Below are positions 63,187 to 63,602 of a DNA stretch of 64,000 nt, in pieces; position 1 is the first letter of the stretch, and each line of letters begins with the position of its first letter. Source of the stretch: a virus (Duplodnaviria > Caudoviricetes); IMG/VR virus record IMGVR_UViG_3300030109_002859, positions 1,885 to 65,884 of that record; one strand, written 5' to 3'. The translations under genes were made by a program, and so were the position numbers. A model generated the notes under the pieces. That model was not told the origin of the DNA. It made no database searches and was given only the letters and a program-made list of their open reading frames with translations.

Positions 63187-63602
63187 TTTGGAATTTGGAA
63201 AAGTAGAAAGATTAATTAACTTTCTATGGGATTGGCAGAATAATGGGTAGACATTTGAAGCCCATATAGCAATCTAAGACAAAGTTGTGGTGACTTGATA
63301 GTTGGAAAATATTTTACCTATCTATATCGACAGATATTGTCTAATGTATTTCCGTAAAAAACATAAGATGATTCTTATGACTCTATTGTAGGTAAGGGTA
63401 AAACTGAAATCCTACTTAATGGCTGAATAATCTACACTTGGAGAGATAAAGCATTTGTATAGAAGTTGTATTCACATCAATGAGGAATAACCACCTTGAG
63501 ATGAACTATCGTAACTGATAGATACAAAGTTTAGAGTTAAAAAAAATCCAAGACGGAAATTGTGAGTAATCATTAATCTCACATCCCCAATATAATTCCA
63601 AA
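63187..63602 (+). ncRNA. Candidate large structured ncRNA 2 (~416 nt), family unknown
   Basis: Ends pair (TTTGGAATT/AATTCCAAA), about a dozen complementary pairs, boxA-like motif before and terminator after. Confidence 0.68.

Follow-up and report, generated by a model that had tools for sequence, protein, structure and literature searches.

The locus and its RNA

The stretch analysed here, called the window in the following, comprises 64,000 nucleotides and forms the last 64 kb of the 65,884-base virus record IMGVR_UViG_3300030109_002859 (CheckV completeness 33%). Its proteins include terminase, portal, major head protein, tail sheath and tail-fibre proteins, pointing at a myovirus. Close to its 3' end lies a gene-free gap of 1131 nt, bordered by a 112-aa open reading frame (ORF) that ends at 62656 and by a gene starting at 63787 that is assigned to a single-stranded DNA-binding protein (SSB) through a weak PHROG hit. 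Within this gap, positions 63187-63602 of the + strand specify an enlarged two-core manA-type RNA of about 415 nt (416), probably a gene in its own right. An initial annotation of the sequence had proposed at this place a large multidomain non-coding RNA with long-range and crossing pairings. This proposal is borne out by covariation across 87 homologs and by the absence of any ORF of at least 60 aa overlapping 63187-63602; the only two overlapping ORFs lie on the minus strand and are 36 and 31 aa long.

Related loci were collected from virus contigs with two protein baits, the 455-aa protein encoded upstream (14 loci) and SSB (80 loci). A profile search with the RNA returned homologs of about 400-415 nt, full length and always as one unit, and all 34 full-length profile matches span positions 1-4 to 409-413 of the hidden Markov model. 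After 9 duplicates and 8 partial hits had been left out from 41 nhmmer hits, 25 distinct sequences (the window and 24 relatives) were aligned with MAFFT in an alignment that was not fitted to any structure (A2). A 22-letter signature taken from the loop of hairpin H6 then led to at least 120 further virus-contig stretches, and the two-core variant can thus be regarded as common. The RNA is present in all 119 new loci fetched in this way; with 10 partial hits and 47 core duplicates set aside, 62 new distinct full-length sequences were gained, resulting in an alignment of 87 distinct sequences (A3).

On A2, RNAalifold predicted 91 pairs, 55 of them with compensatory changes. The structure that we tested consists of 93 pairs in 19 helices and corresponds to the RNAalifold prediction minus one rejected invariant helix and plus a pseudoknot. 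The rejected helix, GATT(63369)/AATC(63545), never varies and clashes both with the covarying pseudoknot and with the H5 hairpin, which forms in 19/19 variants. In A2, 98.7% of the cells are paired, compared to 33-43% with slid partners, and 58 pairs have changed on both sides, compared to 8-18 with slid partners; the score was reached by none of 500 shuffles. The larger alignment A3 gave the same picture, with 98.3% of cells paired (34-43% with slid partners), 66 of the 93 pairs changed on both sides (20-23 with slid partners) and again no shuffle among 500 reaching the score. An all-against-all scan of single columns for covariation was dominated by clade splits and unusable for finding new tertiary pairs. 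The elements of the RNA are listed below; changes on both sides refer to compensated pairs.

63187-63195 with 63594-63602, + strand: outer closing stem; forms in 25/25 sequences
63203-63227, + strand: P0 hairpin (TAGAAAG/CTTTCTA, helix 1); 98.5% paired, 4/7 pairs changed on both sides; self-complementary hexamer in the apical loop
63228-63232 with 63583-63587, + strand: manA P1 closing stem GGGAT/ATCCC, spanning both cores (helix 2); 100% paired in 87 sequences
63233-63342, + strand: core 1, from the cmscan alignment to the manA model; helices 3-7, 21/23 pairs changed on both sides
63235-63270, + strand: P2 hairpin of core 1 with GCAGAATAA internal loop
63277-63342, + strand: P3 three-way junction of core 1 with GUGGUG loop
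63348-63355 with 63553-63560, + strand: expanded P4 ATTTCCGT/ACGGAAAT (helix 8); 6/8 pairs changed on both sides
63362-63379, + strand: H5 hairpin CATAAGA/TCTTATG; loop mostly of 4-5 nt, in most sequences UGAU, ACGA, GCAA or GCGA
63380-63385 with 63532-63537, + strand: stem S ACTCTA/TAGAGT (helix 9); 4/6 pairs changed on both sides
63380-63537, + strand: core 2, made up of stem S, H6, P2' and the P3' three-way junction; helices 10-18 97.9-100% paired
63387-63587, + strand: match to Rfam manA (RF01745); 55.7 bits, gathering score 55.2, E 1.6e-11
63388-63415, + strand: H6 hairpin, aligned by cmscan to manA P0
63422-63452, + strand: P2', aligned by cmscan to manA P2
63437-63442 with 63547-63552, + strand: pseudoknot CTTGGA (P2' loop)/TCCAAG (helix 14); 3/6 pairs changed on both sides, 100% paired
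63455-63527, + strand: P3' three-way junction, aligned by cmscan to manA P3
63562-63582, + strand: P5 hairpin GTGAG/CTCAC (helix 19), aligned to manA P5; 4/5 pairs changed on both sides

The 3' strand of the closing stem P1 comes immediately after P5, which is the place of P1 closure in the family model. This stem, which was also found independently by RNAalifold, is G-C at its middle pair in 72 sequences of A3 and A-U in 15, and unpaired in none. In core 1, the P2 pair 63235-63270 covaries (GC 46, AU 40 and CG 1 of 87), and changes on both sides were seen in 5/6 pairs of ATGGGT/GCCCAT and in 5/5 pairs of AGACA/TGTCT. The corresponding numbers in A3 are 2/5 for GTAGG/CCTAC, 5/6 for TTGTAT/ATACAA and 5/6 for CTATC/GATAG at 63506. 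P4 is not a hairpin but an 8-bp long-range stem with strands 197 nt apart: as RNA, AUUUCCGU (63348-63355) follows directly after P3 and pairs with ACGGAAAU (63553-63560) directly before P5, and the stem encloses the H5 hairpin, the second manA-like core and the pseudoknot. The latter crosses stem S as well as the P2' stem, and its 3' strand abuts that of P4. Cores 1 and 2 can be aligned collinearly with a score of 48 (shuffles 35.9 +/- 5.2, reached by 8/500), and this modest similarity would fit an old duplication. Taken as a whole, the two cores belong to one fold on one manA scaffold, in which P4 has opened to hold H5 and the second core. That this is a single fold and not two RNAs in tandem follows from the strands of P1 and P4 that are missing in either half, because they pair across the halves with compensatory changes.

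Three elements were out of register in the MAFFT alignment and were therefore checked individually in each sequence. The outer stem TTTGGAATT/AATTCCAAA can form in all 25 sequences of A2 with differing arm sequences; in 17 of them it is matched by at most 2 of 200 shuffles, while relative L034 does no better than shuffles. The H5 hairpin is present in all 19 distinct variants, again with differing stem sequences. For GATAG/CTATC at 63297 (P3b in core 1), 14 of the 16 distinct variants give one closing hairpin, its sequence differing among them and its stability being low in two (-0.8 and -1.4 kcal/mol); L051 and L076 give a small internal hairpin only. All arms listed in the initial annotation lie at the coordinates that it stated. 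Compensatory changes uphold most of its pairings as given above, including ACTCTA/TAGAGT, which it had offered as a crossing option. Its second crossing option, GTGGT/ACCAC, is canonical in 81-87 of 87 sequences per position and nearly invariant, with 4-5 divergent sequences breaking two positions. The hairpin GATTG/CAATC had been placed in a region that does pair, albeit one base out of register: the covarying pair is 63235-63270, and 63228-63232 pairs with 63583-63587 instead.

The + strand folds at -92 kcal/mol (z = -2.72) and is thus more stable than 99 of 100 dinucleotide shuffles, one shuffle being as good, and the minus strand reaches z = -1.91 with 4/100 shuffles as good. By itself, fold stability is modest and merely suggestive evidence. 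The strand can be read from wobble pairs. A U-G pair at 63248/63260 is found in 87/87 sequences, and G-U pairs are invariant or frequent elsewhere too; on the opposite strand they would be A-C, which identifies the + strand as that of the RNA.

Relation to manA and other large RNAs

The 3' part of the RNA just passes the gathering score of the Rfam manA family. Over the same part, three close relatives score 51.7-55.5 bits, with one reaching the cut-off and two narrowly missing it, while another three relatives exceed it at 58.8-73 bits; 5 of 7 sequences lie at or above the cut-off. In the 5' half, a sub-threshold manA-like match extends over 63204-63358 (18.1 bits, E 0.068 at relaxed threshold); it rises to 28.5 bits in relative L009 and to 39.9 bits in another relative. 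The two matches are complementary. The 5' match accounts for P0, the P1 5' strand GGGAU, the UG linker, P2 with a GAAUAA internal loop and the P3 junction with GUGGUG, and contains neither P4 nor P5. The 3' match supplies H6 as the P0-like element, P2', P3', the P4 3' strand and P5, while the model deletes P1 and the P4 5' strand. All manA consensus elements (P0, P1, P2, P3, P4 and P5) are therefore present and supported by covariation, spread over two local matches. The initial annotation had thought of an undescribed large RNA class, a notion that does not survive these matches.

Apart from manA, no Rfam family was found at threshold in 62300-64000, even at E up to 10, and in a survey of 20 loci from more distant relatives 3 tRNAs were the only hits at gathering score. 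The second possibility raised at the outset, a reduced relative of GOLLD or ROOL, is equally without support, as neither covariance model matches 62300-64000 at E up to 10 or any part of the window at gathering score. The RNA resembles GOLLD and ROOL in being phage-borne, large, multi-helix and apparently stand-alone; it differs from them in its shorter length, in modules that are those of manA and in the lack of an Rfam match to either. GOLLD and ROOL have been reported to form RNA-only multimers (PMC12286853).

The canonical manA RNA of Prochlorococcus phage P-SSM2 (181.6 bits over 198 nt) was compared with the window RNA element by element. Both are phage-borne and share the P0 hairpin, the UG linker and a GUGGUG loop in the P3 three-way junction. 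P2 has a CUGAAUAA-type internal loop in manA, which takes the form (G/A)C-N-GAAUAA in the window RNA, and strands at the P4 positions as well as a P5 hairpin with a UAAUC..AAUC-type loop are likewise common to both. The closing stem P1 reads GGGAG/CUCCC in P-SSM2 and GGGAU/AUCCC in the window RNA. Beyond these elements the two part ways: the window RNA has about 415 nt and two cores, whereas manA RNAs have one core and about 190-215 nt (215 nt in S-CREM1; PMC9964418, Table 4); its P4 is a long-range stem holding a second core, an extra hairpin and a pseudoknot, in contrast to the simple P4 hairpin of manA; and an extra outer stem joins both RNA ends. The next gene begins 185 nt downstream, behind the RNA's own terminator hairpin, while the canonical copy sits directly upstream of a coding sequence. 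The phage that carries the window RNA is not a T4-like cyanophage.

manA is a known family, and its Rfam model does not represent the closed architecture with two cores. The R2R paper mentions "modular structures" in some manA RNAs that were not drawn, and its authors may have seen the expanded form. No description of a double or tandem manA RNA was met in the literature searched, which did not cover the supplements of Weinberg et al. (2010) and of a 2026 preprint (10.64898/2026.07.01.735769).

Flanking signals and neighbouring genes

The RNA is framed by the following features.

63100-63156, + strand: promoter-like block composed of an A-tract, a TTTTGAG/GGG element and an AT-rich stretch including TATAAATA at 63146-63153; same layout in 24/24 aligned sequences
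63155-63170, + strand: small putative 5' leader hairpin ACTTAA..TTAAGT; relatives have different sequences that are hairpin-capable by eye, L051 and L025 almost nothing
63175-63188, + strand: boxA-like leader motif GTTTTTTGACAATT, which runs into the outer stem
63609-63676, + strand: long terminator-like hairpin with T-run; -18.5 kcal/mol, z = -3.39
63678-63786, + strand: SSB promoter-like block of the same layout, leader and Shine-Dalgarno sequence; same block in the gap of about 97 nt of RNA-less relatives

The block at 63100-63156 is a putative promoter. We take TATAAATA to resemble promoters of the T4 late type; a scan for sigma-70 promoters directly upstream of the RNA gave nothing convincing. 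A boxA-like leader motif GTT(T/A)TTTGA(C/T)AATT occurs with at most one mismatch at 62717-62730, 62798-62811 and 63175-63188, each time just 3' of a promoter-like block. These three copies lie within 470 nt, and elsewhere in the window there are two hits with two mismatches only; over the whole window the motif is no more frequent than expected by chance. Directly before the RNA, all 24 aligned sequences have a close variant, GTT[TCA]TTTGA[CAT]AA (GATTTTTGAAAA in L086). At the 3' end, the terminator-like hairpin was missed by a simple terminator scan that considered loops of 3-8 nt only. By eye, its outer stem varies among the relatives and yet stays complementary, while the loop is conserved. 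The initial annotation had bounded the RNA by a boxA-like motif and a terminator, and both are in place. The interior of the hairpin, some 40 nt at 63619-63660 (ATTTTTAGTTTCCAC ... ACTTAAAAA), is almost invariant, which is unusual for a plain terminator, and a similar hairpin module is still located upstream of SSB in L042, a relative without the RNA.

In 19 relatives with SSB proteins 70-77% identical, the space upstream of SSB measures 90-123 nt (one has a 10-nt overlap instead), and the RNA profile found no match in these gaps. The same SSB leader block has been kept in all five RNA-less relatives that were aligned. Of 113 signature-fetched loci that extend far enough downstream, 101 have SSB on the same strand at a distance of no more than 600 nt; the other 12 comprise 4 with one extra gene before SSB and 8 with other genes next. 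In L121, the gene after the RNA is not SSB but, by eye, encodes a small heat-shock protein of the Hsp20/IbpA type. An Hsp20-like class is listed among the genes downstream of manA RNAs (PMC2864571).

A second element in the gap, RNA 1 (62813-63074), had been paired with the manA-type RNA in the initial annotation as one co-expressed system. This coupling is not supported. A homolog of RNA 1 (blastn) is present in only 8 of 30 loci that contain the RNA 5' end and at least 700 nt upstream, and is missing in the other 22, and the manA-type RNA has its own promoter-like block in 24/24 sequences with or without RNA 1. RNA 1 is richer in G+C, is preceded by two TTGACT-N17-TATATT promoter-like sites (62679 and 62760), has no Rfam match at E up to 10 and was found by blastn in only 10 related loci; it looks like a separate optional cassette. 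In L009 (3444-3761), which does not differ from L029 over the RNA, RNA 1 and the manA-type RNA are separated by an additional stretch of about 296 nt; it contains a small ORF with a Shine-Dalgarno sequence and is not more stably folded than its shuffles (z = -0.67). Small cassettes seem to accumulate in the gap before SSB, which may be an intergenic insertion hot-spot.

In relative L011, the full-length SSB has 49.6% identity with a Microcystis phage Mel-JY01 protein, 38.6% with an annotated SSB of Flavobacterium phages and 24-35% with proteins of several Bacillus and Lysinibacillus phages. On account of these similarities, we do not regard the phage as a T4-like cyanophage. In Mel-JY01, which has the closest SSB, there is no manA match. 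Pfam returned no match for nine neighbouring proteins and PHROGs only weak hints, no tRNA genes were found in the window, and a blastn search in distant mode with 62660-63790 against a collection of cultured phages gave no match. Sampled words are shared with 23 sequencing runs, 16 of which are recorded as RNA, at fractions of 0.18-0.30 of 109 words, none reaching half; such word shares are evidence neither for transcription nor for habitat. In species genomes, the signature pattern occurs at four places, of which only L223 holds RNA and SSB. L223 is a contig binned in a metagenome-assembled genome (MAG) of Candidatus Pelagibacter with a G+C content of 0.32. In this contig, nhmmer finds the complete RNA (407 bits), and its SSB is 94.6% identical over the first 184 residues, with the match split in two pieces. 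The contig may come from a phage and be mis-binned, and its bin is no evidence for a host. The other three matches, in Campylobacter MAGs, are chance matches within a coding ORF.

Stand-alone gene or leader, and possible assembly

We consider it likely that 63187-63602 (+) is a stand-alone gene for a non-coding, structured two-core RNA of the manA family and not a switch for SSB. The RNA unit would comprise its own promoter-like block, 5' hairpin, boxA-like leader and terminator hairpin and would be gained or lost as a cassette upstream of an SSB gene that keeps its own promoter-like block; the product would be a discrete transcript of roughly 500 nt acting in trans. It is the combination of own signals, cassette behaviour and a separate SSB promoter-like block that argues for a discrete trans-acting RNA. 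That RNA-less relatives retain the SSB leader, and that the RNA occurs without RNA 1 in most loci, points in the same direction.

The most serious competitor is a cis-acting leader of the riboswitch type, the fold of which would govern read-through of the 63609-63676 hairpin into SSB in response to a ligand or condition. We judge this unlikely, though it has precedent, manA having been described as a riboswitch candidate in 5' untranslated regions (Weinberg et al., 2010; PMC2864571) and the P-SSM2 copy ending only 16 nt before a coding sequence. The position of SSB downstream in the great majority of loci would suit a leader, and so would the Hsp20-like gene that takes its place in L121. Yet in 12 of 113 loci another gene comes next, and between terminator and SSB the window has a promoter-like block, leader and Shine-Dalgarno sequence that recur in the five aligned RNA-less relatives, while phages with and without the RNA differ little in SSB. 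Reading the alignments, with no systematic search run, revealed no conserved alternative pairing between fold and terminator. The sole candidate, a pairing of ACGGAAAT with GTTTCC of the terminator loop, does not persist in any sequence in which P4 covaries. Far less probable still is a pair of independent manA RNAs in tandem, a degenerate and a better copy, with incidental long-range pairs. The two separate local cmscan matches (63204-63358 and 63387-63587), a pair that recurs in L009 and one relative, could be read in this way; however, the 5' copy is devoid of a P4 and P5 of its own and the 3' copy of the P1 5' strand, P1 and P4 form between the copies, with compensatory changes (P1 GC 72/AU 15; P4 6/8 pairs), the outer stem closes the whole unit in every sequence of A2, and the full-length profile matches invariably run from end to end. 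Hardly any credence can be given to a new large class akin to GOLLD and ROOL or to chance pairings in AT-rich intergenic DNA. Size, ornate fold and phage location might evoke the former and a z of only -2.72 the latter, but the manA match with its element-by-element correspondence and the missing GOLLD and ROOL matches speak against a new class, and covariation far above the controls against chance.

Several points weigh against a stand-alone two-core manA gene. The Rfam score is marginal (55.7 versus 55.2), and the model aligns each half only locally and cannot align the 415-nt RNA globally. P1 rests on one covarying pair, with the alternative A-U seen in 15 sequences from several sub-lineages. 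Since 62 of the 87 sequences in A3 were fetched by the exact H6-loop pattern, H6 conservation in that alignment is circular. Transcription, transcript ends and abundance of the RNA are deduced from sequence signals only. Finally, the prevalence of SSB as the next gene, the authors' own view of canonical manA RNAs as riboswitch candidates and the close spacing in P-SSM2 would also fit a role in cis.

For the stand-alone two-core RNA, an assembled state can be envisaged by analogy. According to a 2026 preprint (10.64898/2026.07.01.735769), single-core manA RNAs studied by cryo-electron microscopy form a 60-mer cage, decamers and octamers in vitro, with contacts through the kissing loops L5-L7', L8-L9' and L3-L8' and a GNRA contact. 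The window RNA belongs to the same family, its apical loops could kiss, and a GNRA-like H5 loop occurs in part of the family; the RNAs of the preprint differ in being shorter than 200 nt, single-core and studied in vitro only, and the word 'tandem' is absent from its main text. In 76 of 87 sequences, the P0 loop contains a self-complementary run of at least 6 nt, with versions such as UAAUUA, UUAUAA, GAUC-type and UAAUUG, compared to a mean of 29.4 and a maximum of 40 in shuffles, the sequences being related and not independent. Complementarity also exists between the GUGGUG loop in core 1 and UAACCAC in core 2, both being too invariant for covariation; loop-loop contacts via GUGGU/ACCAC and via GUUG/UAAC in core 2 are speculation. 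By analogy with the short manA RNAs, the two cores would act as a covalently linked pair, the conserved apical loops (P0; GUGGUG with UAACCAC) would mediate contacts between cores or molecules, and the RNA would work as an assembled particle or scaffold during infection. That the fused core pair assembles in infected cells into RNA-only higher-order particles via P0 and inter-core loops is conceivable but doubtful. It is weakened by the P2 and P5 loops, which also exceed shuffles in self-complementarity (62 and 56 of 87), so that the P0 signal is not unique, and by candidate contact loops that are nearly invariant, with the GUGGU/ACCAC register broken in the 4-5 divergent sequences.

The two-core variant is poorly captured by Rfam, with scores near the cut-off and no more than half of the molecule annotated. 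For structural work it offers a natural "linked dimer", for which P1, P4 and the pseudoknot give a concrete secondary-structure model. If assembly did occur, uncultured phages of a widespread group would possess a stand-alone gene whose product is an RNA scaffold or compartment, a biological counterpart to the manA cages obtained in vitro, and manA RNAs would be structural and not riboswitches. manA has been an orphan "riboswitch candidate" since 2010; two cores, an own promoter-like block and terminator and a cassette-like turnover between close phage relatives suggest that at least this branch of the family may consist of trans-acting RNA genes.

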